From: Candidatus Nomurabacteria bacterium
GTDB taxonomy: Bacteria > Patescibacteriota > Minisyncoccia > Phycocordibacterales > UBA9973
Direction: 5' to 3'
Length of the DNA: 64,000 nt
Assembly (NCBI GenBank): GCA_037139835.1
Contig: JBAXFQ010000001.1
Coordinates: forward strand, 12,780 to 76,779
Positions within the stretch are counted from its first letter, which is position 1. The number at the start of each line of letters is the position of its first letter. The notes under the pieces were generated by a model. It was not told the DNA's origin. It did not search any database and worked only from the letters and a program-made list of their open reading frames with translations. Both the position numbers and the translations under genes were made by a program. Shown piece by piece: positions 5,351-50,913 of this stretch.

Positions 5351-5570
5351 TTATAATATAAAGTATCATAATTATTCTTATTTCTCAATAATATTTTATT
5401 ATTAAAATAAATGTGCTAAGATAATCAAAGTAAATCACAAGGAGGCGTGGATATGAAATGTAAACTGCTTTACATTTCATCCGTTCAGATATTTTATCTG
5501 AAAAGCTATATGCTTTAAGCATAGCTTTAGGGAAGGGCCCGGGAGGGCACGAAGACACAACGACGAGTGA

Positions 5571-6977
<1,407 letters not shown>

Positions 6978-38899: not shown

Positions 38900-39625
38900 C
38901 TAATTCAGTTCATCTGCACCGTCTCTTATTTTACTCGTACGAACTATTTCTAATATTTTATCTACATCATCAGTAATTATAAATCTTTCTAAGTCAGAAG
39001 GAGATATAGTTTTATATTTTTCCACCATCGATTCTTCAAGTAACTTTTTGATAGGATTCCAGAATTCTGTTCCAAATAGTATTACTGGTATTGGTCCTAC
39101 TTTTCCAGTCTGTAGGTGTGTGAGCATTTCGAAGAATTCATACATTGTTCCTGTTCCTCCTGCACAGTAGACTACTGCTTCTGTCGTATATTGCATTGAT
39201 ACTTGTCTAGCAAAGAAGAAATGAAATGGTACTTCTTTCGTTACATATTTGTTTGTATTTTGTTCTTTTGGAAGTCTGATTGTTAATCCGACGGATTCTA
39301 TTCCAGCATCAAACGCACCTTTGTTAGCAGCTTCCATGATTCCTCCACCTCCGCCAGATATTATCACATAGCCTAATTCTTTTGCTATTCTGTATGACAA
39401 ATTGTAAGCGTTCATGTAGTCAGGGTGATCGGGCTTAAGTCTAGCTGATCCGTAGAAAGTAACTGAAGGTCCAAGTTCTTTTACAGTATCTATTCCTTCA
39501 CGAAACTCTTCTTGTATCATACATAGCTTTGTCTCTTCTCCGTCTCCACCTGTAAGAGTCATACACCCATTTTTAATATCATCTGTGGTTATATGTCTAG
39601 GTTCATATTTTATTTCTGTATTCAT
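38900..39625 (-). CDS. LOG-family protein (cytokinin riboside 5'-monophosphate phosphoribohydrolase / nucleotide 5'-monophosphate nucleosidase-like)
   Basis: GGGGGIMEAANKGA and PGGTGTMYEF, the LOG/TIGR00730 signatures. Confidence 0.78.
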   Translation of the reverse strand: MNTEIKYEPRHITTDDIKNGCMTLTGGDGEETKLCMIQEEFREGIDTVKELGPSVTFYGSARLKPDHPDYMNAYNLSYRIAKELGYVIISGGGGGIMEAANKGAFDAGIESVGLTIRLPKEQNTNKYVTKEVPFHFFFARQVSMQYTTEAVVYCAGGTGTMYEFFEMLTHLQTGKVGPIPVILFGTEFWNPIKKLLEESMVEKYKTISPSDLERFIITDDVDKILEIVRTSKIRDGADELN

Positions 39626-39855
39626 CCCGTTTAGAAGCAGGTCGTGGTCATTATTTTAATAAAGACTAACGTGCTTATTTTATTATAAGTAATTAAATAA
39701 TATTACAATCCACATTATTCACCATGACCGCGGCTTCTAACGGGATTCATAACCCCAATTCTACCTTAAAAATCTGATGTTTCCAAACTGTATTTTTGTA
39801 TAAGAATAATGGTCTAATGGTAGGAAAAATATCTCATTATTGATATAATATAAAT

Positions 39856-40557
39856 ATGCCAAGTAATTGGAATAGGGGATTAACTAAAGAAAATAATAAT
39901 TCTGTTAAGAAAATATCTGAAACAATGAAAAATAAACACATTGATAATTTTTACCATTGGAGAGAAAAAATGAAAAAAGAAGGTAAAATTAAATCAATTT
40001 ATCTACCTTTTAAAAAGAATGGAGATTTAGCAGAATTAATTGGTGTGACGCTAGGAGATGGTCATCTTTGTGTATATCCAAGAACAGAAGAATTAAGAAT
40101 AATATCAAATTCAAAAAATACTGGTTTTATTGAAAGATACTCAATTATTTTAGAGAAAGTTTTTAAGAAAAAACCTTATATTATAAATTCAAAAATTAGT
40201 AATTCAACAAGAATTGGTCTTTACGAAAAGAACATTAGTGAAAGAATACAAATTCCTACAGGAGCACGTAAAAATATAGTTATTATTGTTCCTGACTGGA
40301 TTTTAAGAGATAAAAAGTATATAGTAAGGTATCTGCGAGGTTTATACGAAGCAGAGGGAAGTTTTAATGTTCATAGCTCTACTTATACTTATAAATTTTC
40401 ATTTTCTAACAGTAATGAATCAATGCTCAATAATGTATTTGATTTAATGAAAGTTATTGGTTTTAACCCGCATAAAAGTAAAAACCAGATTCAAATTTCA
40501 AGGAAAGAAGAAGTGTATAAGGCAATGAAAATATTAAAATTCAGAGACTATAAATAA
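39856..40557 (+). CDS. Free-standing LAGLIDADG-family homing endonuclease-like protein
   Basis: Two LAGLIDADG-type motifs, LIGVTLGDGHL and LRGLYEAEGSF, about 100 aa apart. A TATAAT lies 6 nt before the ATG. Confidence 0.6.
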   Translation: MPSNWNRGLTKENNNSVKKISETMKNKHIDNFYHWREKMKKEGKIKSIYLPFKKNGDLAELIGVTLGDGHLCVYPRTEELRIISNSKNTGFIERYSIILEKVFKKKPYIINSKISNSTRIGLYEKNISERIQIPTGARKNIVIIVPDWILRDKKYIVRYLRGLYEAEGSFNVHSSTYTYKFSFSNSNESMLNNVFDLMKVIGFNPHKSKNQIQISRKEEVYKAMKILKFRDYK

Positions 40558-40563
40558 ATATTT

Positions 40564-40634
40564 TGCTGGTTGGTGTAATGGTAGCACGTCTCCCTCTGGA
40601 GGAGAAAATTGGGGTTCGAGTCCCTGACCGGCAG
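40564..40634 (+). tRNA. tRNA-Gln (CUG)
   Basis: Hand fold: U1-A72 acceptor TGCTGGT/ACCGGCA, G73, and anticodon stem TCTCC/GGAGA with loop CTCTGGA. The listed ORF 40563..40802 is spurious. Confidence 0.75.
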
Positions 40635-40643
40635 CAAAATGAA

Positions 40644-40677
40644 AATCCGCTTGTTAAAGCGGTATTTTCTTTTTTTG
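40644..40677 (+). terminator. Rho-independent terminator after tRNA-Gln
   Basis: ccgctt gtta aagcgg followed by TATTTTCTTTTTTTG. Confidence 0.6.
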
Positions 40678-40794
40678 TTACCGGTAACGAGCAAACTTCT
40701 TTGCTCGTGTCAGGGACGAGAAAGACTTTTCTGTGGTTTGTTTACAAACCTAGAAAAGTACCAGCGACCGTAGGGCGAGAGAAGTGTATTCACA

Positions 40795-40839
40795 GTCCCT
40801 GACCGGCAGCAAGGGTTTTAAATATTAATTTGGTATAAT
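40795..40839 (+). promoter_or_regulatory. Box P0: an exact 17-nt copy of the tRNA-Gln 3' end (GTCCCTGACCGGCAGCA), then 22 nt, an extended -10 TGGTATAAT, 6 nt and the ATG of the downstream gene
   Basis: Direct comparison with tRNA positions 40618-40634. Confidence 0.6.
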
Positions 40840-40845
40840 ACAATA

Positions 40846-41325
40846 ATGATAATTTTTATTAATGGTTCAATAAATTCTGGCAAAACTACAGTCTCTAAAA
40901 TATTAGCTTATAAACTTTCTAATGTAGCTTTAATAGAAATTGATTCACTTAGAGAAATGATTGATTGGATGCCACTCAATGAAGCAATTCCTATTAATTT
41001 AGAAAATACAATTTCATTAATCAAAAATTTTTCTAATAAAAATTTAAATACAATTATTCCATATCCTTTATCTAAGAAAAACTACGATTTCATTTTAAAT
41101 GAACTTAAAGATATAAATACGAAAATCTATACCTTCACATTAGCTCCAAAACTTGAGACGGTTCTCATTAATAGGGGAACCAGAGAATTAGATGACAGTG
41201 AACGTGAAAGAATTAAGTATCATTATAATATAGGAATACATAAGCCTATTTTTGGAGAAATTATAGATAACAGTAATCAAACACCTGAAGAAACCGCTAA
41301 TTTTATCTTATCTAAAATATCTTAA
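40846..41325 (+). CDS. P-loop NTPase / small-molecule kinase-like protein
   Basis: Walker A GSINSGKTT within 10 aa of the N-terminus. At 159 aa it resembles shikimate/chloramphenicol-phosphotransferase-type kinases. Confidence 0.55.
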   Translation: MIIFINGSINSGKTTVSKILAYKLSNVALIEIDSLREMIDWMPLNEAIPINLENTISLIKNFSNKNLNTIIPYPLSKKNYDFILNELKDINTKIYTFTLAPKLETVLINRGTRELDDSERERIKYHYNIGIHKPIFGEIIDNSNQTPEETANFILSKIS

Positions 41326-41351
41326 TTTTATCCTCATTTTCTATCAAAATA

Positions 41352-41409
41352 GGTTCCAACTTCGTCCCAGACGGTCAGCAACGACTTTTTGAACTAGGTT
41401 TGATATAAT
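41352..41409 (+). promoter_or_regulatory. Box P1: a tRNA-Gln-3'-end-like element (GGTTCcaacttcGTCCCAGACGGTCAGCA), then 23 nt, TGATATAAT, 6 nt and ATG
   Basis: It matches the tRNA 3' end at 14 of 17 positions and shares a GGTTC T-loop start. Confidence 0.55.
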
Positions 41410-41415
41410 AATTGT

Positions 41416-42066
41416 ATGGAAAATAATAAAAATTTTAATAAACTTTCAGTTGTCTCATTAATTTTAATACTAGTAGGTCCATTATTTATAATCCTAGATA
41501 AATTACATATTTATTTACCCAAAGGAGATTTTTGGGAAATATATTTGGTAATAATATCATTTATTCTTGGATTTATTTTTGCAATTATTTCATTATATAA
41601 AATTAAACAATCTGCTGAAAAAGGAAGAATTTTATCTATCGCAACAATAACAATATTTATTATATTATCATTATTAATTTCTTATGCTTTACTTTTTAGC
41701 CAGTCAGATCCCATAAAACCAAATTCAAGAATGAAATCACAATTAGCAAGTGTAAGAGCACAAGCAGAATCATATTATCAATCATCAAATTATTCTTATG
41801 ATGGTTTGTGTGAAGCCACACAAGATAAAAATGGTTTAGGTGGTAATTCTAACTCTGGACTTTTAATGGCAATCTCTGCAGCTTCAGCTAAAAATACAAC
41901 TAAATGTTTTAGTGGTAGCAGTAGTTGGGTTGTAACATCTGGATTGGTTGATATTACAAAGCCATATACACATTATTGTACAGACATGACAGGAGTTTTT
42001 GAACCAATAACAAAAGCTCAAAATGATTCAATTACAAACGCCGATACTCTTTGCCCTCAGCAGTAA
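41416..42066 (+). CDS. Pilin-headgroup homolog on a polytopic anchor (3 TM helices; no prepilin cleavage motif)
   Basis: The C-terminal 120 aa (KSQLASVRAQAE ... NGLGG ... GLLMA ... HYCTDMTG, 4 Cys) are homologous to the globular domains of the two major pilins at 19558 and 20106. Confidence 0.6.
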   Translation: MENNKNFNKLSVVSLILILVGPLFIILDKLHIYLPKGDFWEIYLVIISFILGFIFAIISLYKIKQSAEKGRILSIATITIFIILSLLISYALLFSQSDPIKPNSRMKSQLASVRAQAESYYQSSNYSYDGLCEATQDKNGLGGNSNSGLLMAISAASAKNTTKCFSGSSSWVVTSGLVDITKPYTHYCTDMTGVFEPITKAQNDSITNADTLCPQQ

Positions 42067-42067
42067 A

Positions 42068-42109
42068 GGTTCCAACATTGTCCCAACAGTAATCAAATTA
42101 TGGTACAAT
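42068..42109 (+). promoter_or_regulatory. Box P2 (GGTTCcaacattGTCCCaacagtaatca) fused to TGGTACAAT, then 6 nt and ATG
   Basis: Same family as P1 and P3, with an internal deletion. Confidence 0.5.
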
Positions 42110-42115
42110 TAAATT

Positions 42116-42385
42116 ATGAATCTACTAGCCGGTATAATTGTTGGTTTCTTATTTTTTAAATTATTCGCGGGAAAATACGAAGGAGATAAAATTGAAAGAT
42201 CTTTGCGCTTTTCTATCAAAAATAATTATCTACATATCCATCATTGGATTTTTTGTTTAACATTACTAATAATTATTTTAATTCTAGGTTTTAAGAATGA
42301 ATTAATTATTGGATTACTTATAGGTTCTATAGTGCAAGGTTTAACTTATAAAGATAGATTTTTAATTATCTACTCTAAAAGTTAA
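42116..42385 (+). CDS. Small membrane protein (89 aa, 2-3 TM helices)
   Basis: Hydrophobic profile, and it has its own P-box promoter. Confidence 0.4.
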   Translation: MNLLAGIIVGFLFFKLFAGKYEGDKIERSLRFSIKNNYLHIHHWIFCLTLLIIILILGFKNELIIGLLIGSIVQGLTYKDRFLIIYSKS

Positions 42386-42408
42386 TCTAAATATTTCCAA
42401 TAAAAAAT

Positions 42409-42465
42409 GTTCCAACATCGCCCCAGACAGTCAGATAGTTCATTCAAGGTTTTACGTGATATAAT
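42409..42465 (+). promoter_or_regulatory. Box P3 (GTTCcaacatcGCCCCAGACAGTCAGA), then 23 nt, TGATATAAT, 6 nt and ATG
   Basis: 27 of 31 positions identical to P1. Confidence 0.55.
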
Positions 42466-42471
42466 CATTCC

Positions 42472-43458
42472 ATGGAATCAAACCTTGAAAAAATAAATTC
42501 AACAGTACATTTTAAAAACCAGCCAAAACTCTCTGGCGCAGAGGTTGATAAGAATCGAGATGAAAGACGATTGTCGTTATTTTCTTCTATTGAGAATTTT
42601 TTGTTGAATGATGATTTATTTAAGGGAAAAGAAATTGAAGTTGAATTTTCCCATGAAGGTATTTCTTCATTAGTTTGTTTTATTGAAGGAGGAGAGAAAA
42701 AAATGGTTCTTAAAATTGCTGTAGATAATACCGTAACCGAAGGTAGTGAAGCATTGTTTCTAAGAACGTGGAAATCTATCGGCATCTCAACACCACATAT
42801 TTACAAAGAGGGTAAACTTGCAGGTAGGCCATTTGTTTTGATGGAATATATCGATGCACCTACTGCAGGAGAGAAGTATAATGAGGATAAAGAAGGCAGG
42901 GAGAGTATGCATCTTGAAGTAGGGAGAATTTTACGCAAAATGCACAAACCAGAATCTATTGGATTTGGTAAGGTTATAGACGGCAAAGGAGAGTATACTT
43001 CTTTTAGAGAATGGATTGATACTCCAGATATGAGCAACAGAGTAAAGTATATAGAAGAAAATAATTTATTAACTTTAGAGCATGGAACATTTTCTCAAGC
43101 TAGAAATATTCTGGTTGATTATGTAGGTGATAGTAATAAAAGCAGTTATTGCCATTTTGATTATAGTGCTGGGCATCTTTTTGCCACAGAACCTCTAACC
43201 GTCTTTGATCCGAATCCTCTTTTTAATAATGGATATATAGATTTGGGGCGTACTTTAGTAAATTATATCGCTGCTAGTGGAACATATCCTAAAAAGATTG
43301 TGGAGGGTTATTTTGAAGAAGGTGGATTAGATGAAAAAGTTTTGCATGCCTCAATATTTATCAATATAATCTACAAGTTACCATACCAGTATCAGAAAGG
43401 AAAATCACAAACTATACAAAACTTCCAAAATTATCTTTCTCAGAATAAATTTCTCTAG
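42472..43458 (+). CDS. Phosphotransferase-family protein (APH/choline-kinase-like fold)
   Basis: Brenner-like catalytic region CHFDYSAGHL and an IDLGRT motif resembling the APH IDxGR(x)G box. Confidence 0.5.
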   Translation: MESNLEKINSTVHFKNQPKLSGAEVDKNRDERRLSLFSSIENFLLNDDLFKGKEIEVEFSHEGISSLVCFIEGGEKKMVLKIAVDNTVTEGSEALFLRTWKSIGISTPHIYKEGKLAGRPFVLMEYIDAPTAGEKYNEDKEGRESMHLEVGRILRKMHKPESIGFGKVIDGKGEYTSFREWIDTPDMSNRVKYIEENNLLTLEHGTFSQARNILVDYVGDSNKSSYCHFDYSAGHLFATEPLTVFDPNPLFNNGYIDLGRTLVNYIAASGTYPKKIVEGYFEEGGLDEKVLHASIFINIIYKLPYQYQKGKSQTIQNFQNYLSQNKFL

Positions 43459-43478
43459 ATATAGTATGTTTTCTATAT

Positions 43479-43508
43479 CTGTCTATCACTTTGGAACTTT
43501 GTTATAAT
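43479..43508 (+). promoter_or_regulatory. Box P4 (TGTCTATCACTTTGGAACTTTGTTATAAT) for the HIT gene; a second promoter-box family
   Basis: Nearly identical to P5 (45513..45541), and preceded by the terminator hairpin agatatag..ctatatct. Confidence 0.5.
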
Positions 43509-43515
43509 CAAAACT

Positions 43516-43992
43516 ATGAATAAAGAAATATTTCAAACGAAAAATTTTACTGTAGAATCAGTAGAAAAACCACATATAACTAGGATAGATGGTGGTCATA
43601 TCATGATTAGACCGAAATCAAGGATTGTTGATAGGACTAAACTTACTCCAGATGCGGCGATAGAATTGATGAAATTGACTATGATAATAGGTGAAGCGAT
43701 GGCAAATGGACTTAATAAGGCGGGTATTGATATAGGAAGAATCAATTACCAAGATAATGGGAATTGGAGTGTATTTAAACCTGAAGGTCCTTATTTTCAT
43801 ATCCATTTATATGGTAGAGCAAAAAGTGCTAAGATTCAAAAATATGGAGATGCTTGTTATTTTCCACATATAGATACTGGTTTCTATGATTCATTTGAAC
43901 CATTAAATGATAATGATATAGAAGAAATTAAAAAAGAGATTGAATTAATAATTAAACAAGAAAAATACCAAGATAAAAATTGGCATATTTAA
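43516..43992 (+). CDS. HIT-family (histidine triad) hydrolase-like protein
   Basis: HFHIHLYG matches the H-phi-H-phi-H-phi-phi HIT motif. Confidence 0.5.
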   Translation: MNKEIFQTKNFTVESVEKPHITRIDGGHIMIRPKSRIVDRTKLTPDAAIELMKLTMIIGEAMANGLNKAGIDIGRINYQDNGNWSVFKPEGPYFHIHLYGRAKSAKIQKYGDACYFPHIDTGFYDSFEPLNDNDIEEIKKEIELIIKQEKYQDKNWHI

Positions 43993-43999
43993 TAAAAAA

Positions 44000-44635
44000 A
44001 TGGAAAAACAAAATTATTGTAATTTATATTTAGTTCGTCACGGAGAAACTGAATGGAATGTAAAAAATATTATTCAAGGACAATCAAATTCCAATCTAAC
44101 CGAGAAGGGTATAGAGCAAGCCATGAAAACAGGGGATGAATTGAGAGATATTAAATTTGATGCAATTTTTTCTTCAGATTCAACTCGAGCACACAATACT
44201 GCGGAAATAATCAAATTAGACAGAGAATTAATAATAGAAACGTCTCATTTATTAAGAGAAAGAAATTTTGGTAGTTTTGAAGGTAGACATGCAAGTGAAT
44301 TCCTTGAAGCTTTTAGAGAAAAATTAAAAGAAAAAGAAACTTTATCAGGTGAAGAAGGATGGAATTTCACTGTTGCCTCTGATATAGAAACTGATGAAAT
44401 GATTGTATCAAGATTCATTACTAAATTACGTGAAATAGCTGTTGCTTATCCCAATCAGACGGTGTTAGTAGTTAGTCATGGTGGACCAATAAGAATGTTT
44501 CTAGCAAAAATAGGATATGCAAAAAGAGAAGAACTCGTTGGTGGTTCTTTAAAAAATGCTGGATGTGTCAATGTTCTTTCTGATGGTGTTGATTTTATTC
44601 TTCAAAGTGTAAAAGGAGTGGAATTATCTAAATAA
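44000..44635 (+). CDS. Histidine phosphatase-family protein (phosphoglycerate-mutase-like)
   Basis: LYLVRHGETEWN (RHG motif) and a later SHGG. Confidence 0.7.
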   Translation: MEKQNYCNLYLVRHGETEWNVKNIIQGQSNSNLTEKGIEQAMKTGDELRDIKFDAIFSSDSTRAHNTAEIIKLDRELIIETSHLLRERNFGSFEGRHASEFLEAFREKLKEKETLSGEEGWNFTVASDIETDEMIVSRFITKLREIAVAYPNQTVLVVSHGGPIRMFLAKIGYAKREELVGGSLKNAGCVNVLSDGVDFILQSVKGVELSK

Positions 44636-44809
44636 TCATATTCTCAAACTAAAAGTTACCATCATCGTCTCTGTAATTATATACAAAAAATGACCTCGCA
44701 CTTACGTCGAGGTCATTCACATTCCAGAGTTATCTACCAGATAAGGGCCTTTGTTTCTAGAGGTTTTAATTTCAACCTCGAACTGTCTTGTGGTAGCGCA
44801 TTCTGTTAA

Positions 44810-45445
44810 CTAATTTAAACATAAAATTCTGAGTGCTTCCCTGTAAGCAGGTCCATCGCACATAGTCTTCATTTTTTCCTGATGTTCTTGTGGAGTAATA
44901 CCAACTTCCACAAGAAGTGGATCAGAAATATAAATAATTCTTCCGCAATCAACCTCTTTTTCAACGAAGTGGATTGTAGAAGCTGTATATTTCTCTCCAG
45001 CCTCTATAGCCATTCTAACCGCATCATCACCAGTATACTTTGGTTTTCCTTCTTCATTCTTGATACTTAAATCAGCAGGGTGGACATTGATAATCGGACA
45101 ATAGCCAAGCAGGGGTTCTGTTATCTCTAACATAAATCCTGAGAGTATAATAATATCAGGATTAAACGGCTTAATGAGATCCAGCATCTCTTTGAAATAA
45201 TCCCTTCTTACCCAGATTGGCATATCCCTAAGTTTTCCATCAAATCCAGAGTCAAAGCAAAAATGTCTTGTATTTAATCCTATAAAAGGAATATCTTTCT
45301 CTTTACAAAACTTTTCACCCTTAGTATCTTTCTTGTTTGAGATACAGCACACAACCTCGTAACTCTTCCCATAATTTTTGTCTTTTTCAAACAAATACCT
45401 GAGAGAACTTGCACTTCCTGAGAATAAAACAGCGATTCTTTTCAT
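44810..45445 (-). CDS. Formyltransferase (PurN / GAR-transformylase-like fold)
   Basis: N-terminal Rossmann MKRIAVLFSGSASSL, then SGFMLEI and the NVHPADL motif (compare INIHPSLLP). Confidence 0.6.
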   Translation of the reverse strand: MKRIAVLFSGSASSLRYLFEKDKNYGKSYEVVCCISNKKDTKGEKFCKEKDIPFIGLNTRHFCFDSGFDGKLRDMPIWVRRDYFKEMLDLIKPFNPDIIILSGFMLEITEPLLGYCPIINVHPADLSIKNEEGKPKYTGDDAVRMAIEAGEKYTASTIHFVEKEVDCGRIIYISDPLLVEVGITPQEHQEKMKTMCDGPAYREALRILCLN

Positions 45446-45512
45446 ACGTTTAATTGTTTAAAATGTTCATTATTTAAGAACATATTACTTAAAAATGAAT
45501 ATTAAGCAAGCC

Positions 45513-45541
45513 TGTCTATCACTTTAGAACTTTGGTATAAT
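45513..45541 (+). promoter_or_regulatory. Box P5 (TGTCTATCACTTTAGAACTTTGGTATAAT), then 6 nt and ATG
   Basis: 28 of 30 positions identical to P4. Confidence 0.5.
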
Positions 45542-45547
45542 ATAATT

Positions 45548-45757
45548 ATGCAAAAAATATCAACAAGAATTTTTATCTATTCATCTATAGTTTTTGGAAT
45601 TATCGGTATTTTAGTTGTGATAACCGGCTCTGGACCGGATTCACCTGATTCTTATATTAGCAAAATACTAATTAGGCTTTTGTTTGCAACTGTATTTGTC
45701 ATACTGCCTTCATTTGCTTTAAGCGTTGCTGGTAAGTACTTAAACGATAGGTCTTAA
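45548..45757 (+). CDS. Small membrane protein (69 aa, 2 TM helices)
   Basis: Hydrophobic profile, with the P5 promoter upstream. Confidence 0.4.
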   Translation: MQKISTRIFIYSSIVFGIIGILVVITGSGPDSPDSYISKILIRLLFATVFVILPSFALSVAGKYLNDRS

Positions 45758-45831
45758 TTCTAGATAAAGTTTTTGTTTTAATCCTGATCTTAAGATAGGG
45801 TTTTTAACTATTATTTTGATATAATTAGCAA

Positions 45832-46134
45832 ATGACAAAATACAACAAATTAGTAAGAGATAAAATACCAGAAATGCTAGATAATAAAGGTATTTCGTAT
45901 GAAAAAAGAATAGCTTCAGATGATGAATATAAAATAGAACTAATTAAAAAACTAGACGAAGAAGTAAAAGAATTTTTAGAGGAAAATATTACAGAAGAGT
46001 TGGCTGATATTATAGAAGTAGTCGAAGCACTAAAAAGATTACCTGAGTATAGTGATGTAGAAGAAGTTCGTATTCAAAAATTAAAAGATAGGGGAGGATT
46101 TGATAAAAAGATAATACTTAAAGGAGAAAAATGA
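45832..46134 (+). CDS. MazG-like nucleoside-triphosphate pyrophosphohydrolase (small all-alpha NTP-PPase)
   Basis: N-terminus KLVRDKIPE plus the EExxE/D acidic helix EELADIIEVVEAL. TGATATAAT lies 6 nt before the ATG. Confidence 0.55.
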   Translation: MTKYNKLVRDKIPEMLDNKGISYEKRIASDDEYKIELIKKLDEEVKEFLEENITEELADIIEVVEALKRLPEYSDVEEVRIQKLKDRGGFDKKIILKGEK

Positions 46135-46559
46135 TATATCTAGAAAAACCAGAAAATTTTAATCCTAAATTTGAAGTTGTGAGTTGCTTTTTTAAGCAAG
46201 AAGGAAAGTTTCTATTGCTCCATCGTTTAGATTCAAAACCACAAGGAGATACTTGGGGTGTTCCAGCAGGGAAGGTTGAGAAAGGTGAAAGTTCTATCGA
46301 TGCTATTTGTAGAGAGATTATGGAGGAGACAGGGTATAATAATTTTAAGATATTACCTGAATTAACTCATACTATTTTTGTTAAGTATTCTGATTATGAT
46401 TTCATCTATTATATTTATGGTTTAGATATAGATAAAGATTACTTAATTAAAATAGAAACTAACGCTCATAAAGGATTTAGGTGGGTTAATAAAGAAGAAG
46501 CTTTGAAGATGAATTTAATCCAAGACCTGGATTCTTGTATTGATCTTTATTTCAAATAA
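46131..46559 (+). CDS. NUDIX hydrolase
   Basis: Nudix box GKVEKGESSIDAICREIMEETG. Overlaps the upstream gene by ATGA. Confidence 0.8.
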   Translation: MIYLEKPENFNPKFEVVSCFFKQEGKFLLLHRLDSKPQGDTWGVPAGKVEKGESSIDAICREIMEETGYNNFKILPELTHTIFVKYSDYDFIYYIYGLDIDKDYLIKIETNAHKGFRWVNKEEALKMNLIQDLDSCIDLYFK

Positions 46560-46609
46560 AGTATTTAATTAAAACCCTGAAATAGTTTCTAATATTGCTT
46601 AAAATCACT

Positions 46610-46642
46610 ACCAACGACTTTTTGAGATTGTTCTGGTATAAT
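46610..46642 (+). promoter_or_regulatory. Box P6 (ACCAACGACTTTTTGAgaTtGTTcTGGTATAAT), then 6 nt and ATG
   Basis: It shares the promoter-proximal half (CAACGACTTTTTGA...TATAAT) with P1. Confidence 0.5.
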
Positions 46643-46648
46643 TTAATT

Positions 46649-47014
46649 ATGGATGAATTGAAGAAGATTATATATAAATTAGAAACAGACTTGCTTAAAC
46701 CAGAAGTTAGAAGTTCATTTAAAACGCTTGATGAAATTATAGCAAATGATTTTATTGAATATGGGAGTTCTGGTCTTATTTATAATAAAGATATGATTTT
46801 AGAAAGATTACCAAAAGCAATTTCTCCTTCTTATTCTTTGTATGATTTTGAGGTTATTTTTTTAGCAGAAAATATAATTCAGACAAGATTCAAAACAGAT
46901 AGGATAAATCTAAATAATACCAAAACAACTTCTTTTAGAAGTTCTATTTGGAAAAATACTGGAAAAAAGTGGCAAATAATATTTCACCAAGGAACACCAA
47001 TTAATTATTTATAA
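46649..47014 (+). CDS. NTF2-like / DUF4440-like small protein
   Basis: C-terminus ...KKWQIIFHQGTPI, typical of SnoaL/DUF4440 folds. Start is set at the ATG 6 nt after TATAAT; the listed ORF begins at 46595. Confidence 0.45.
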   Translation: MDELKKIIYKLETDLLKPEVRSSFKTLDEIIANDFIEYGSSGLIYNKDMILERLPKAISPSYSLYDFEVIFLAENIIQTRFKTDRINLNNTKTTSFRSSIWKNTGKKWQIIFHQGTPINYL

Positions 47015-47017
47015 ATT

Positions 47018-47359
47018 ATGAAAGATAAGATAATTGATTTTTGGGCTGTAAATATTCTTTTTATTTTACATTTTATCTTTGTAATTATAATATTTTTTGG
47101 TTGGGTATTTCCTAGTATCCATTTCATATATGTCTTGATCTTATCGGGGACACTGCTATGCTGGGTTGTTTTAGGATATTGTCCTATAACAAGATGGGAA
47201 TTTAATATCAGGAGAAAATACGAACCAAATCTTAATTATAAGAATGAATATTTAGAATATTATTTTAGCAAATTTTTAAAAATAAATATTCCTGTAACTT
47301 ATATTAGATTTTACGGAACTTTGTTTATCATTTTGTCTTTATTGATTTCAACTATATAA
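47018..47359 (+). CDS. Hypothetical membrane protein (3-4 TM helices)
   Basis: Hydrophobic profile. Confidence 0.4.
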   Translation: MKDKIIDFWAVNILFILHFIFVIIIFFGWVFPSIHFIYVLILSGTLLCWVVLGYCPITRWEFNIRRKYEPNLNYKNEYLEYYFSKFLKINIPVTYIRFYGTLFIILSLLISTI

Positions 47360-47371
47360 TATCTAAACTAT

Positions 47372-47689
47372 ATGCTTACTTTTTCTGAACGTGTTATTAA
47401 AATAGCCCTTGCGATTCCTCCTGGTAGGGTGACCACTTATGGGCGTATTGCTCGTGCGGCAGGAGCAGGGCCTATGGCATCTCAGAGTATTACTACTATT
47501 TTAGGTAAAGCTTATTTTTCTGGTATAAAAAATATTCCTTTTCATAGGATAGTATATGCCGATGGAAAAGTATGGCTAAATGATGAGTATGGTAAAAAAA
47601 GATTAGCATTATACAAAAAAGAAGGTATTAAGCTCGATAAGAATAACAGAATTATTAATTTTAGAGATGTTTTGTTTGAGTTTAAATAA
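47372..47689 (+). CDS. Alkyltransferase-like protein (ATL; MGMT DNA-binding domain lacking the acceptor Cys: IPFHRIV instead of IPCHRV)
   Basis: AIPPGRVTTYGRIA helix-turn-helix and the Asn-hinge context match the O6-alkylguanine transferase C-domain. The PCHR cysteine is replaced by Phe. Confidence 0.6.
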   Translation: MLTFSERVIKIALAIPPGRVTTYGRIARAAGAGPMASQSITTILGKAYFSGIKNIPFHRIVYADGKVWLNDEYGKKRLALYKKEGIKLDKNNRIINFRDVLFEFK

Positions 47690-47707
47690 ATTTGGTATAA
47701 TGGATAT

Positions 47708-47944
47708 ATGAAAACAAAAAATTGTGAGAGTTGTATGATGCCTTTTAATAAAGACACTGGAGTAAGAGAGTCAGATAAATACTGTAGTCTTTGTTATAAA
47801 GATGGCAAGCTTTGTTATGAAGGAAATGATATAAAAGAGTTTCAGAGGGTTTGTTACAAGTCCATGTTGGATAAGGGTATAAATAAATATCTAGCTAAAT
47901 TTTATACTTGGATGATAAAGTTTGCTCCTCGTTGGAAGAAATAA
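47708..47944 (+). CDS. Small zinc-ribbon protein
   Basis: CESC...CSLC pairs. TGGTATAAT lies 6 nt before the ATG. Confidence 0.45.
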   Translation: MKTKNCESCMMPFNKDTGVRESDKYCSLCYKDGKLCYEGNDIKEFQRVCYKSMLDKGINKYLAKFYTWMIKFAPRWKK

Positions 47945-47949
47945 AATAT

Positions 47950-48510
47950 ATGAAAATAATCAGAATTATACTTCTCATTTTAATAATCATAGGGCTAGCT
48001 CTTTTGGCTACACAAAAAATTTGGGTGCCTAAATTAGTTGATAGAATTATTTCATCAGAAACTAAAACAAATGTTATACATATAGATAATAAGTCTACTA
48101 TGCTTGCACCTAAAGCAAATATTTCTTTGGTAGATGGTAGACAGTGCTATACTTATAATCACGAAGCAACTAAGACTGAGCCATATAAGGTCAGTGAATT
48201 TATGGATATAACCATTAAAGGCGAATCCGTAATTGGAACTAAAAAGGGGACACAAAGTGGCCCAGACCTTACAAATGGATACACTGGAAGTATCATAGGG
48301 ACTTTGAACAAAGATACTATCACATCAGTACTTTCATATACAGTAGAAGGATCGAAAGGTAAAGAGAAAGAAATATATAAAGCAGATAAAACTGGTATTG
48401 AGAAATTGCGATACCCACTTATCGAAGAAAAAGGAGTACTAGTACCAGATATAACTAAAGAATTTAAGATAATGCATTATTCTCGTGTTGGATGCGAATC
48501 TGCTAATTAA
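47950..48510 (+). CDS. Membrane-anchored / secreted hypothetical protein
   Basis: N-terminal signal-anchor MKIIRIILLILIIIGLALLA. Start is moved to the internal ATG. Confidence 0.45.
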   Translation: MKIIRIILLILIIIGLALLATQKIWVPKLVDRIISSETKTNVIHIDNKSTMLAPKANISLVDGRQCYTYNHEATKTEPYKVSEFMDITIKGESVIGTKKGTQSGPDLTNGYTGSIIGTLNKDTITSVLSYTVEGSKGKEKEIYKADKTGIEKLRYPLIEEKGVLVPDITKEFKIMHYSRVGCESAN

Positions 48511-48574
48511 TTTGTATCATTTGTAAATATTAGAAATTTATATAATTGGTCTATAAATATGGTAATATATAATC

Positions 48575-49561
48575 ATGGAAAAAAATGAACATTTTTTGGG
48601 TTGGGATGCACTTATTCGTATTGTTATAATGGGGGTTTTAATTTTTCTTTGTTGGAAAGTCCTTCCTATTATGCCAGTTGTTTTAGTCTCATTAGCATTA
48701 ACAGCCGCTTTCTATCCTACAGTAATTAAAGTCCAGAAAAAGACAAAAATACCAATGATTATTTGTATTTTTTTGATTTTAGTTATACCTATCGTTCCTT
48801 TTGTTGTTTTAGGTTTTATTTTCATTCCTCGTATTATAAAAGAGATTCCTGTCTTATTAGGTAGTATAAATAATGTTGTAGGCCACTCATCATTTCTTTC
48901 TTCTTTTTTGAAAGATTTTAATATTGTTACTTACTTAAAAACTCATCTAGACTACACGACTGCCACAGTTAATATAACTTTTATAATTGTTTCAATAATT
49001 ACGACTATAATTCTGACTTTTTTCCTTATGTATGATATGAAAAGATTATCAGAATTGTTTTTAAATAACTTACCTTTAAAAGAAAAAGATAGTGTAAAAG
49101 AATTGATAGAAGAGATAGCAGTAGTAACAGGTAAATATATAAGAGGGAATGTTATCATTTCTATAATATGTGGAGTTGTTGTCTATACTGGACTTACACT
49201 TTTAGGTGTTCCTTTTGCTTTGCCCTTAGCTTTGTTTGCAGCAATTTTTGATTTGTTACCTTTGGTCGGACAGACCATAGGCGCAATACCTGCGGTTATC
49301 ATTGGCTTTGGTGTATCACCAACGATAGGTATATTAGTTGTCATTTTACATTTCCTTTACCAGCAAATCGAGAATAATATAATCTCGCCTTTGATTTACA
49401 ATAAGGCACTCGATCTTTATCCTTCAGTTGTTTTTCTGTCTGTGTTGATAGGAGCAAGCCTATTTGGTATCTTAGGAGCATTTTTATCTCTCCCCGTTGC
49501 TGCTAGTATTCCTGCTATGATTAACTATCGAAAAAATTATAAAATTAGACATAGTGCTTAA
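48575..49561 (+). CDS. AI-2E family transporter (PerM/UPF0118)
   Basis: Eight TM helices and a conserved C-terminal block LLGVPFALPLALFAAIFDLLPLVGQTIGAIP. Confidence 0.65.
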   Translation: MEKNEHFLGWDALIRIVIMGVLIFLCWKVLPIMPVVLVSLALTAAFYPTVIKVQKKTKIPMIICIFLILVIPIVPFVVLGFIFIPRIIKEIPVLLGSINNVVGHSSFLSSFLKDFNIVTYLKTHLDYTTATVNITFIIVSIITTIILTFFLMYDMKRLSELFLNNLPLKEKDSVKELIEEIAVVTGKYIRGNVIISIICGVVVYTGLTLLGVPFALPLALFAAIFDLLPLVGQTIGAIPAVIIGFGVSPTIGILVVILHFLYQQIENNIISPLIYNKALDLYPSVVFLSVLIGASLFGILGAFLSLPVAASIPAMINYRKNYKIRHSA

Positions 49562-49581
49562 TAATTAATTATATCTATAAA

Positions 49582-50304
49582 ATGAATAAAATAAGAAATC
49601 CGATTACTCACGTAGAGTTAAGTGACTCAATGAGTAATAATAAATTGAATTGGTTGAGGGCTGCAGTCTTAGGAGCCAATGATGGTATTGTCTCAACTTC
49701 TGCTGTTATTGTTGGGGTTGCTGGAGCTTCTAACTCGAAGAGTTTTATATTGACGGCTGGTGTAGCTAGTTTAGTTGCTGGGGCTCTTTCTATGGCTGTA
49801 GGAGAGTATATATCTGTAAGTACACAAAGAGATACAGAGAAATCATTACTTGAAAAAGAACGTATAGAGCTTGCCACTGTTCCAGATGAGGAATTAGAAG
49901 AGCTTACTGGTATATATGAGAAAAAAGGTTTATCTAGAATTACGGCTGAAATAGTAGCAAAAGAATTAACAGCTCATGATGCCTTTAGTGCTCATGTTGA
50001 AGCCGAACTCGGTATAGATCCAAATAACCTCACCAAGCCTTTAAACGCAGCTTATGCTTCAGGGCTAGCTTTCTTTTCTGGAGCTATCATTCCTATTGTC
50101 CTAATAATAATTTCACCTGTAGCTTACTGTATACCTGTTACATTTATAGCTGTCGTTCTAGCTCTCGTAGCCACTGGGACACTTAGTGCTCATGCTGGAG
50201 GCTCTAGTAAGTCTAAGGCGGTAATACGTGTAGTGGCTGGAGGCTTGATAGCTATGGTAGTCACTTTTGGTATAGGCAAACTATTCGGAGTTGCTGGTAT
50301 ATAA
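49582..50304 (+). CDS. VIT-family (CCC1/MbfA-like) membrane iron/manganese transporter
   Basis: NWLRAAVLGANDGIVSTSAVIVGVAGA is the VIT1 signature. Five TM helices. Confidence 0.65.
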   Translation: MNKIRNPITHVELSDSMSNNKLNWLRAAVLGANDGIVSTSAVIVGVAGASNSKSFILTAGVASLVAGALSMAVGEYISVSTQRDTEKSLLEKERIELATVPDEELEELTGIYEKKGLSRITAEIVAKELTAHDAFSAHVEAELGIDPNNLTKPLNAAYASGLAFFSGAIIPIVLIIISPVAYCIPVTFIAVVLALVATGTLSAHAGGSSKSKAVIRVVAGGLIAMVVTFGIGKLFGVAGI

Positions 50305-50349
50305 AATACCATTGTTTGAATAATATCAACTATTTGTTAAAATAAAAGT

Positions 50350-50913
50350 ATGATAAATATAAATTCAACAGTCCCTGATTTTGAGTTAGATTCATATCAG
50401 GATAATAATATTAAAAAAATTAAGCTTTCAGATTACAAAGGCAAGTGGGTAGTTCTTATTTTTTACCCAGCTGATTTCACTTTTGTTTGTCCTACTGAAT
50501 TAGAAGATGCAGTGACACACTATGAAGAAGTAAAAGCATTAGGAGGGGAGATTATGAGTATCAGTACAGATACTGCTTTTTCTCATAAAGCTTGGCATGA
50601 TGAATCACCTGCAATAAGTAAGATAAATTATCCTATGTTGGCAGATCCTACAGGCAAAGTCTCAATGATGTTTGGAACATATATAGAGGAAGAGGGTCTA
50701 TCTTTAAGAGGTACCTTTATAATTGATCCTGATGGAGTTCTAAAAACAATTGAGATTCACGATAATAATATAGGACGAAGTGCAAAAGAAATGGTTCGTA
50801 AACTAGAAGCTGCAAAATTTGTCAGAGAGCATGATGGAAATGTTTGTCCTGCAAGTTGGGAACCTGGTAAAGATGTCTTAACTCCTGGTATAGATCTTAT
50901 AGGTAAGATATAG
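50350..50913 (+). CDS. Peroxiredoxin (typical 2-Cys, AhpC/Prx1 subfamily)
   Basis: Peroxidatic FTFVCPTE and resolving GNVCPASWEPG motifs. Confidence 0.85.
   Translation: MININSTVPDFELDSYQDNNIKKIKLSDYKGKWVVLIFYPADFTFVCPTELEDAVTHYEEVKALGGEIMSISTDTAFSHKAWHDESPAISKINYPMLADPTGKVSMMFGTYIEEEGLSLRGTFIIDPDGVLKTIEIHDNNIGRSAKEMVRKLEAAKFVREHDGNVCPASWEPGKDVLTPGIDLIGKI

Follow-up and report, generated by a model that had tools for sequence, protein, structure and literature searches.

Bacteria of the candidate phyla radiation (CPR, or Patescibacteria) have tiny, streamlined genomes, and little is known of how they acquire and exchange genes. Among the closest described systems of serial gene capture, integrons carry promoterless cassettes driven from the Pc promoter. 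The composite islands of staphylococcal cassette chromosome (SCC) and pseudo-SCC elements are found at rlmH (orfX) in staphylococci and are mediated by Ccr large serine recombinases. The pdif modules of Acinetobacter, which are plasmid-borne, alternate in orientation and have no tRNA anchor, depend on XerC/D and on dif-like sites with inverted XerC and XerD arms. Here we describe positions 40,846 to 47,944 of a 64,000-nucleotide stretch ("the window", AT-rich with ~32% GC) of the Candidatus Nomurabacteria contig JBAXFQ010000001.1, together with the tRNA-Gln gene that precedes this interval.

We read the interval as the proximal, partly decayed part of a cassette array anchored at tRNA-Gln, the canonical form of which is widespread in Paceibacterota. 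Its status as an island is near certain, and we think it rather probable that it represents the tRNA-proximal part of a flexible island at the tRNA-Gln 3' end, built of one- and two-gene modules by cassette insertion. The first-pass annotation of the window, made from the letters alone, had described an accessory cluster of nucleotide and phosphoester house-cleaning enzymes; it missed the tRNA-Gln anchor, the repeated tRNA-3'-like motif at the gene junctions and the extension of the plastic zone past 47944.

Results

Junction motifs at a tRNA-Gln gene

A tRNA-Gln(CUG) gene lies 210 nt ahead of the first open reading frame (ORF) of the cluster, and the first three gene junctions of the window carry a motif that resembles the tRNA-Gln 3' end (GTTCCAACaTCGTCCCAGAC..CCAGCAA; consensus of the window copies AGGTTCCAAC.TCG.CCCAGAC.G.CAGCAA, at 41345, 42064 and 42401). 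The motif aligns with the T-arm and acceptor 3' half of tRNA-Gln, with an additional 5-6-nt insertion in the T-loop (GGTTC-CAACAT-CG). The window copies were scored with an nhmmer profile built from 270 metagenomic copies of the motif. The proximal features are listed below.

40564..40635, + strand: tRNA-Gln(CUG), the anchor of the array (ARAGORN; Rfam 57 bits)
40636..40690, no strand assigned: imperfect palindrome: acceptor strand of the tRNA 3' end and its inverted copy, plus a terminator hairpin (40647-40662)
40678..40811, + strand: tRNA-like structured element (TLE) with an acceptor-like helix, a 9-bp hairpin and a T-stem-like helix
40831..41325, + strand: putative cassette 1, predicted leaderless promoter and P-loop small-molecule kinase of the chloramphenicol-phosphotransferase (CPT)-like type (weak direct matches; homologues)
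41345..41381, + strand: junction motif copy 1 (AGGTTCCAACTTCGTCCCAGACGGTCAGCAA; nhmmer E = 7e-10)
41401..42066, + strand: putative cassette 2, predicted leaderless promoter and 216-aa membrane protein with no assigned function (ORF, domain scan, promoter pattern)
42064..42085, + strand: junction motif copy 2, degenerate, overlapping the stop codon (nhmmer E = 2e-3)
42101..42385, + strand: putative cassette 3, predicted leaderless promoter and 89-aa membrane protein (ORF, promoter pattern)
42401..42439, + strand: junction motif copy 3 (nhmmer E = 9e-7)
42457..43458, + strand: putative cassette 4, predicted leaderless promoter and APH-family kinase (ORF 42472-43458; Pfam APH, E = 3e-6)

The resulting architecture reads tRNA, terminator or TLE, cassette, motif, cassette, motif. 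Across 1.26 Mb comprising the window and the loci of relatives (designated by L numbers), the motif was found in the tRNA-Gln islands of the window, L004 and L067; the two other matches to a loose pattern, in L068 and L071, lie in coding sequence and look like chance. The repeats of relatives match their own tRNA-Gln allele (L002, L004 three times, L067 twice, L007, L015 and others). Motif copy 3 and the promoter behind it have a homologous counterpart in L067, where the junction stands between different genes.

Two further repeats mark junctions in the window. A module of ~35 nt (CTGTCTATCACTTTGGAACTTTGkTATAAT, at 43479 and 45512) precedes five different genes in four genomes, and CAACGACTTTTTGA occurs at 41379, after motif copy 1, and again at 46612.

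The TLE ends in an exact 17-nt copy of the tRNA-Gln 3' end (40795-40811), and this 17-mer recurs with 3 mismatches at 41364-41380; the chance expectation for such repeats is 0.01. Its fold is common to five genomes, with compensatory changes and z-scores of -4.6 to -6.8. Helix P1 is acceptor-like and ends in the tRNA 3' copy, P2 is the 9-bp hairpin, fully compensatory between genomes, and P3 is T-stem-like and co-varies with the resident tRNA, while the 5' strand of the element forms the far arm of the long palindrome with the tRNA 3' end. The TLE follows tRNA-Gln and recurs inside the island as well in L004 and L067, its copies measuring 75-212 nt (L002 12687-12850; L004 12272-12408, 13775-13911 and 18985-19169; L015 12754-12885; L067 12768-12979 and 13838-14033; also L206). 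Rfam searches of the window, L004, L067 and four arrays, by gathering threshold and E-value, returned no family for the motif or the TLE. For the TLE, roles as an RNA, as a recombination target in the DNA or as a decoy attB are possible. A 16-mer of its hairpin gave at least 120 matches in viral contigs, all of which were chance or coding matches.

Motif arrays in metagenome contigs

A strict 26-nt degenerate pattern of the motif, with about one match expected by chance on a rough estimate, was found in at least 120 metagenome contigs with GC contents of 0.28-0.64. The same pattern had 0 matches in viral contigs, which gives no evidence for a phage vehicle. The counts in the remainder of this section are among the matches listed. 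At up to 3 mismatches there were 276 copies, none of them reversed within its contig, with a median spacing of 540 bp and up to 8 in a row; the nhmmer profile counted 297 copies, one of them reversed. Conservation is confined to a non-symmetric core of ~30 nt (A.AAA.GTTCCAACaTCGTCCCAgAC.gCCAGCaa). A tRNA-Gln gene lies upstream on the same strand in 24 of the 25 tRNA-bearing contigs (15 UUG, 9 CUG), and some other arrays begin at a tRNA-like 3' half. Each interval between motifs holds one ORF (median coverage 0.84); 100 of these ORFs are on the plus strand and 53 on the minus strand. The fixed orientation of the motif, combined with the free orientation of the ORFs, points to a DNA recombination site rather than an RNA signal.

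The cargo of these arrays is diverse, with 140 ORFs falling into 127 clusters. NUDIX (7) and GNAT (6) were the commonest Pfam matches, followed by HAD (2) and DUF218 (2); PurD, a deformylase, an isochorismatase, a pentapeptide protein, a cytidine deaminase and a SnoaL-like protein were single cases, and most ORFs had no match. A -10-like element stands 5-8 nt before the start of 35 of 66 plus-strand cassettes. L207 and L277 have a common cassette with its left breakpoint at the motif, and at two higher-GC loci, flanking proteins carry the annotation Candidatus Paceibacterota. When the copies were scanned for an attC-like dyad, an inverted arm was found downstream of 16 of 243, compared with 7 of 243 in the upstream control, and there was no palindrome.

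The genes that precede the arrays vary by lineage. In 13 metagenome loci of other Paceibacterota (e.g. L209, L234, L296 and L300), dnaX, which encodes DNA polymerase III gamma/tau, lies 5' of the array-bearing tRNA-Gln. In another lineage (L282, L284) the arrays lie after pilB-pilC; no intact tRNA was called there, and the first element is a tRNA-like 3' half.

Gene content 3' of tRNA-Gln in relatives

Relatives were gathered by anchoring on PyrG, and they put the window within Patescibacteria, in the class Paceibacteria, alongside Nomurabacteria-like metagenome-assembled genomes. About 60 of them keep the order RF-FtsE-FtsX-PyrG-(LOG)-tRNA-Gln, represented in the window by the block g34605-g35509-g36196-pyrG-LOG-tRNA-Gln. 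Even among relatives at 83-93% PyrG identity the content 3' of tRNA-Gln is not the same, and the window's downstream genes are absent or scattered there. Homology with L274, the closest relative bearing a LAGLIDADG gene, ends at the last base of tRNA-Gln (breakpoint 40637). Gene content other than that of the window follows tRNA-Gln in L002, L003, L004, L067 and L274; the islands of L003, L004 and L067 hold HAD, NUDIX, APH, ITPase-like, nucleotidyltransferase, HIT, NADAR-like and MsrA/B genes.

A second set of relatives (L322, L323, L325 and L328) was reached through the MazG-like protein, which is 97% and 93% identical, and their DNA is ~86% identical to the window. They keep a backbone of APH ... 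MazG-NUDIX ... ATL-186-aa ORF-(AI-2E)-VIT1-Prx ... HK-RR-ApbE and differ from the window by the gain, loss and permutation of single genes exactly at gene boundaries. Their contigs end a little upstream of the conserved part, which is what a strain-variable array would lead one to expect. The whole APH unit (42457-43524) stands in a different position in L322 and L323, a 178-aa NUDIX gene takes the place of the DUF4440 and DUF2784 unit in L322, the AI-2E transporter is absent from L328, and META and rubredoxin genes are additional in relatives at ~86% DNA identity. The Zn-ribbon gene is an insertion relative to L322 and L328 (window 47693-47960 compared with L322 3880-4010 and L328 6440-6570). 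It lies just after the start codon of the next gene, whose leaderless promoter it captures, and is flanked by a direct repeat (ATGAAAACAA / ATGAAAATAA), suggesting an ORF-level insertion by microhomology at A-rich 5' coding ends.

Other members persist: MazG-NUDIX, ATL, the HIT-like protein and the CPT-like kinase are widespread in Patescibacteria at 65-98% identity (ATL at 84% in L067, 70% in L246, 70% in L028 and 63% in L079). The order APH..MazG-NUDIX..ATL-47950 ORF-VIT1-Prx is also partly kept in close relatives; the region is thus a mixture of persistent and transient genes. Island genes are poorer in GC (0.294 vs 0.339, p = 0.002), a modest difference.

The conserved upstream block, the variable downstream content and the gene-boundary indels together identify a flexible island. 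The first-pass annotation had proposed a horizontally assembled accessory island with modular promoters and had named a conserved neighbourhood of the same content in relatives as the contrary case. Relatives instead gave presence/absence polymorphism with module-precise indels, some members being persistent. The proposal is borne out in its main point by the variable content, the boundary indels, the GC difference and the shared promoter module, and it goes too far in that not every gene has a promoter and several members persist.

Between pyrG and tRNA-Gln, a LOG/SLOG-family protein (Lysine_decarbox, LDcluster4; 38900-39625, minus strand) is conserved across Paceibacteria. It is possibly a nucleotide phosphoribohydrolase and belongs to the conserved block, not to the island.

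Predicted leaderless promoters

An extended -10 element (TGnTAyAAT) ends 6 nt (once 7 nt) 5' of the ATG at 40846, 41416, 42116, 42472, 43516, 45548, 45832, 46649 and 47708, as well as at 39856; 48575 is probably also preceded by one. The pattern TGNTAYAAT-N6-ATG occurs 10 times in the window, where 0.14 are expected, and 9 of the 10 lie between 39841 and 47710 (12% of the window). No Shine-Dalgarno-like sequence was present at the pattern-bearing starts. The 6-7 nt between the end of the -10 element and the ATG, at starts that have no Shine-Dalgarno sequence, should place transcription initiation at or beside the start codon, and we infer from the sequence that the units with this pattern are transcribed leaderless.

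The statement of the first-pass annotation that each gene has its own leaderless promoter holds for ~10 of the 16 genes, the cluster forming ~10 transcription units. The histidine phosphatase, NUDIX and DUF2784 genes are second genes of two-gene units, the formyltransferase gene and the 47950 ORF are without the TGnTAyAAT-N6-ATG signal, and the -10 element of ATL lies 13 nt upstream, outside this pattern. The signal also heads operons elsewhere in the window (e.g. 34605, 50350 and 60584), so that what is special here is the density of promoters, not their type. Only the extended -10 element with fixed ATG spacing is informative as promoter evidence; a generic sigma-70 -35/-10 scan found 46 sites where 53 were expected and is uninformative in AT-rich DNA.

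Cargo of the interval

All ORFs listed by the first-pass annotation were recovered at their coordinates, and most of its domain calls were confirmed by Pfam, those of the P-loop kinase, HIT and MazG-like proteins being obtained through homologues rather than firm direct matches. The features beyond the fourth putative cassette are as follows.

43479..43508, + strand: portable junction/promoter module copy 1 (CTGTCTATCACTTTGGAACTTTGTTATAAT; family D10, 93% identity with copy 2 at 45512)
43516..44635, + strand: two-gene unit, putative HIT-like hydrolase (43516-43992) and histidine phosphatase (44000-44635)
44810..45445, - strand: PurN-like formyltransferase (Formyl_trans_N, E = 3e-24)
45512..45757, + strand: junction/promoter module copy 2 (45512-45541) and 69-aa membrane protein
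45817..46559, + strand: two-gene unit with predicted leaderless promoter, putative MazG-like NTP pyrophosphatase (45832-46134) and NUDIX hydrolase (46131-46559)
46612..47359, + strand: junction remnant CAACGACTTTTTGA (repeat family D6), promoter, DUF4440 (46649-47014) and DUF2784 (47018-47359) (Pfam)
47372..47689, + strand: ATL protein (DNA_binding_1, PF01035, E = 7e-14)
47693..47944, + strand: Zn-ribbon gene (ORF 47708-47944; Zn_ribbon_2), the promoter being the next gene's promoter in relatives
47950..50913, + strand: distal, more persistent plastic zone with a 186-aa ORF (start 47950), AI-2E transporter, VIT1 and peroxiredoxin

The P-loop kinase gave weak direct domain matches only, and its homologues at 66-78% identity belong to PF07931, the chloramphenicol-phosphotransferase-like family; one of them lies in another tRNA-Gln island (L332) and two lie elsewhere. 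The HIT-like protein had no direct Pfam match and weak PDB matches to HIT proteins (E = 0.12). Its motif reads HIHLYGR, with Tyr at the third His of HxHxHxx, and its homologues at 73-78% identity either contain PF01230 or go by the name HIT/Ap4A hydrolase. The histidine phosphatase (Pfam His_Phos_1, E = 5e-45) and the NUDIX hydrolase were confirmed by Pfam, and the formyltransferase scored 91 bits against the PurN model, under its 150-bit cutoff. The 69-aa membrane protein has an 81% homologue in L043, which lies there 3' of a weak motif copy. The true start of the DUF4440 (NTF2-like) gene is 46649. In the ATL protein the active-site region reads IPFHRIV where AGT has PCHRV; the presence of the AGT DNA-binding domain without the active-site Cys (PFHRIV) identifies it as ATL.

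The MazG-like protein had no match in Pfam, NCBIfam or PDB sequences. Its structural model is all-helical (predicted local distance difference test score, pLDDT, of 91), and Foldseek returned nothing significant for it, MazG, DR2231 and TM MazG appearing only at E = 4-8. Homologues at 93-100% identity are named by their sources NTP pyrophosphohydrolase or MazG superfamily, and the invariant residues E43 E44 E47 ... E56 D59 fit the signature EExxE...ExxD. This metal-binding signature and a four-helix fold are those of MazG and the all-alpha NTP pyrophosphatases.

Judged by their domains, the cargo genes look like dispensable house-cleaning or detoxification accessories, consisting of stand-alone hydrolases, kinases and transferases for nucleotides and small molecules and of small membrane proteins. 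The roles put forward in the first-pass annotation, nucleotide sanitation and small-molecule modification, fit these predicted domains and imply no coherent pathway. The enrichment in nucleotide house-cleaning functions most plausibly reflects the usual cargo of cassettes and not a metabolic pathway.

Elsewhere in the window, a tRNA-Ser with the unusual anticodon ACU (5576-5663, ARAGORN; anticodon loop TTACTAA; Rfam 56 bits as tRNA) stands divergent from a tRNA-Ser(GCU), and its first 12 nt (GGAGGCGTGGAT) are duplicated ~135 nt upstream (5441-5452). The listed enolase ORF start at 5586 overlaps this tRNA, and the true start is therefore probably further downstream.

Discussion

Cassette capture and its alternatives

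In the mechanism that we propose, modules would enter beside the tRNA-Gln 3' end by recombination with the ~30-nt tRNA-Gln-3'-like site that ends each cassette, the partner being the tRNA-Gln 3' end or its copy at the end of the TLE. The outcome would be arrays in which the tRNA is followed by alternating cassettes and motifs. Older junctions would decay, and modules would later be lost, replaced or permuted by recombination at junction and promoter sequences and at start-codon microhomologies. The recombinase would act in trans, a large serine recombinase being the sole candidate. We regard cassette capture of this kind as an evenly balanced proposition.

Large serine recombinases are the only recurrent candidate enzyme, and their co-location with the arrays is suggestive only. 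In L276 (108-2430), one begins 27 nt after tRNA-Gln and is followed by a RepSA/G2P-like rolling-circle replication initiator, within a segment of ~6.4 kb that ends at a degenerate motif. Related recombinases are found in L280, L265 and L310, the elements of L280 and L265 being related to this integrative element of recombinase and Rep, and L310 carrying a reverse transcriptase gene (RVT_1) between recombinase and array. Related enzymes are also encoded 2-7 kb downstream of tRNA-Gln in L020, L009 and L051, and 2-7 kb downstream of pyrG in L023, which has no called tRNA-Gln; in L009 a motif-like site precedes the recombinase start by ~175 nt. For tyrosine recombinases, a box-II regular expression, a weak test with no positive control, gave none near the arrays, and Phage_integrase was not among the 25 most frequent Pfam families of 148 flanking ORFs, a ranking in which families of one or two members could be hidden. 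The conserved genes 5' of tRNA-Gln were also considered as recombinases and proved to be lineage-specific housekeeping genes (dnaX, matrixin, YkuD, pyrG-LOG).

Several observations weigh against cassette capture. Large serine recombinases were found near ~8 of ~200 loci, with a link to the motif in two, and the scan of the island and of part of the other window ORFs gave no recombinase; neither a circular cassette nor an empty site was seen. A recognisable motif occurs at 3 of ~10 window junctions, so that most of the interval is not demonstrably cassette-derived. Several cargo genes track PyrG divergence (in L067, ATL at 84% and PyrG at 85%), which indicates vertical persistence, and CPT-like kinase homologues are also found outside such arrays, so this gene is not exclusively cassette-borne. 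The 3' part of the motif matches the resident tRNA at 10.8 of 17 positions and other tRNAs at 10.4 of 17 (p = 0.016). It is thus barely closer to the resident tRNA, and a simple attL/attR hybrid model, in which it would be an attR-type copy of that tRNA, has marginal support and is not demonstrated.

The array might have formed with no dedicated recombinase, through natural transformation and homologous or microhomology recombination at tRNA, motif and promoter anchors, maybe boosted by homing-endonuclease breaks at tRNA-Gln with co-conversion. Breakpoints do fall at the repeated promoter modules (43479 and 45512) and at the ATGAAAAYAA direct repeat, and limited tests found no integrase near most arrays. 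The region immediately 5' of the anchor also bears on this possibility.

39809..39825, + strand: tRNA-Gln D-arm remnant (ATGGTCTAATGGTAGGA) of the common allele type of close relatives, 5' of the LAGLIDADG gene (sequence; tRNA-Gln of relatives)
39841..40557, + strand: free-standing LAGLIDADG homing-endonuclease gene with predicted leaderless promoter, immediately 5' of tRNA-Gln (PF14528, E = 4e-7)

Homologues of the LAGLIDADG gene hold the same position in L069, L071, L274 and L246 (five loci with the window), and such genes stand beside tRNA-Gln at 5 of 15 variant D-arm alleles compared with 0 of 63 canonical ones. The window's tRNA-Gln differs strongly from that of relatives at 91-93% PyrG identity. 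The D-arm allele TCGTCTAATGGTAGGAC is predicted to be cleaved by the window enzyme and TGGTGTAATGGTAGCAC to be left uncleaved, and the pairing of endonuclease and variant tRNA has the appearance of intronless homing, with a tRNA gene as target and a resistant allele brought along. A second endonuclease family is present at the same site, with GIY-YIG nuclease-like genes on both sides of tRNA-Gln in L003 (12553-13345) and one after it in L332 (4094-4357). Against an origin by such exchange, most arrays have no homing endonuclease nearby, and strict orientation with 30 nt of non-coding conservation across a wide GC range is more typical of a protein-recognised site. We consider it a somewhat unlikely source of the arrays as a whole; homologous or microhomology exchange at junctions and endonuclease-stimulated conversion at the tRNA probably contribute to rearrangements of the distal island.

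Fragments of 12-18 nt from the tRNA-Gln 5' end are duplicated upstream of the intact gene in L004, L007 (3 copies), L035, L075, L079, L202, L253 and L283. Recombination appears to act on both ends of the tRNA-Gln gene.

Another route is the accretion, one beside the next, of ordinary integrative elements of the classical kind that target tRNAs, be they phage-like, plasmid-like or similar to integrative and conjugative elements (ICEs). Integrases and backbones would later have been deleted, and the motifs would be decaying attR remnants with no cassette mobility. Many relatives carry direct repeats of the tRNA 3' end, short 3'-half tRNA duplicates adjoin the tRNA (~25 nt after tRNA-Gln in L035, L045, L075 and L079), and the element abutting tRNA-Gln in L276 looks complete and ends at a degenerate motif. 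The motif itself is not what random decay would leave, having the same T-loop insertion and core in 276 copies from 28-64% GC among the matches listed, and it is hardly specific to the host tRNA. To obtain one-ORF units of ~540 bp, up to 8 in a row, every backbone would have to be deleted precisely and repeatedly. We therefore judge accretion unlikely.

An RNA-level role for the motif, for instance as a terminator or as a tRNA-like element for processing or stabilising 3' ends, in a normal and poorly conserved gene neighbourhood, is very improbable. The motif does resemble the T-arm and acceptor 3' half of a tRNA, and of the 276 copies 137 come after a plus-strand ORF (at least 40 aa), the distance from stop codon to motif start being 0-4 nt in 63 of them; yet the orientation of the motif is fixed with respect to both tRNA and array, with a third of the cassette ORFs lying on the opposite strand, it has no hairpin or partner strand, and in the 64-kb window and 1.2 Mb of relatives' loci it occurs only beside tRNA-Gln or tRNA-Gln-like 3' ends. 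A core operon cluster with the same genes and order in related genomes, as the kept order of MazG-NUDIX, ATL with the 47950 ORF, and VIT1-Prx in L322-L328 might suggest, has next to no probability, being already contradicted by the different content 3' of tRNA-Gln in five relatives and by single-gene indels even among the closest ones.

Cassette insertion at the tRNA-Gln 3' end thus remains the reading that we prefer for the interval. Its generalisation is more tentative, at a little less than an even chance: a previously undescribed gene-capture platform of Paceibacterota, in which promoter-bearing single-gene cassettes, all of them closed by a conserved ~30-nt mimic of the tRNA-Gln 3' half, would be inserted site-specifically at the tRNA-Gln 3' end. 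The recombinase, perhaps of the large serine type, would act in trans, and the window would be a partly decayed instance. We extend the same, slightly sub-even credence to this reading when it includes integron-like arrays that would serve as a shared pool of small house-cleaning and detoxification genes for minimal genomes. In the library searched, which is not the whole literature, we found no paper with the motif, with such arrays, with CPR integrons or cassettes, with tRNA-Gln hotspots or with leaderless CPR genes.

If the proposal is right, the problem that integrons solve would have been solved a second time and independently, by a sequence-defined cassette array that is found at one tRNA throughout the phylum and is set apart from integrons by its self-promoted (leaderless) cassettes and its tRNA-mimicking site. 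The 30-mer would then be a simple handle with which to catalogue the flexible gene pool of uncultured bacteria in metagenomes, and assembly breaks beside tRNA-Gln would be explained. The recombinase and its site, a pair with a compact conserved target, could be of biotechnological interest.

Comparison with described systems

Intronless homing by free-standing homing endonucleases, with phage T4 Seg/Mob as examples, resembles the anchor rather than the cassettes. A LAGLIDADG or GIY-YIG gene lies beside a variant, presumably cleavage-resistant allele, and a fragment of the other allele is left behind; here, unlike in those examples, the target would be a bacterial chromosomal tRNA-Gln.

The pdif modules of Acinetobacter are likewise small gene modules bounded by short conserved sites, with the recombinase encoded elsewhere. 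With tRNA-linked or "additive" flexible genomic islands the locus has in common the tRNA 3' end as site, duplicated tRNA 3' fragments, presence/absence polymorphism, slightly lower GC and accessory functions. It differs from them in that no integrase was found in the island, the modules hold one gene, and the junction motif is common to a phylum-level lineage.

The array resembles integron arrays and SCC-type composite islands. Like SCC and pseudo-SCC islands, it would have grown by insertions made one after another at the 3' end of a single conserved housekeeping gene. Common to both are also, at each junction, a direct repeat akin to the target 3' end, many units without a recombinase, which would be supplied in trans, and a large serine recombinase in the islands of some relatives. 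The units are single genes of ~0.5 kb, whereas SCC elements measure 20-60 kb, the target is a tRNA, and the link to a recombinase is circumstantial.

With integrons, including sedentary chromosomal integrons and clusters of attC sites lacking integron integrases (CALIN), the likeness extends to several levels. Long one-way arrays of mostly single-ORF cassettes, with ORFs sometimes inverted, were found in the metagenome contigs among the matches listed; a recombination-site-like repeat stands at one end of every cassette, and growth would proceed from a fixed platform end. The cargo is very diverse and mostly unannotatable, with NUDIX and GNAT-type enzymes prominent. With no adjacent IntI and no attC-type palindrome, the array departs from integrons in two defining features. 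No IntI-type integrase was found beside the platform, which is tRNA-Gln and not attI, and the site is a sequence-conserved, non-palindromic 30-mer like a tRNA 3' half, in contrast to the structure-conserved attC hairpin. Integron cassettes depend on Pc, whereas 9-10 units of the window have their own promoter, and the hosts of the arrays described here are Paceibacterota.

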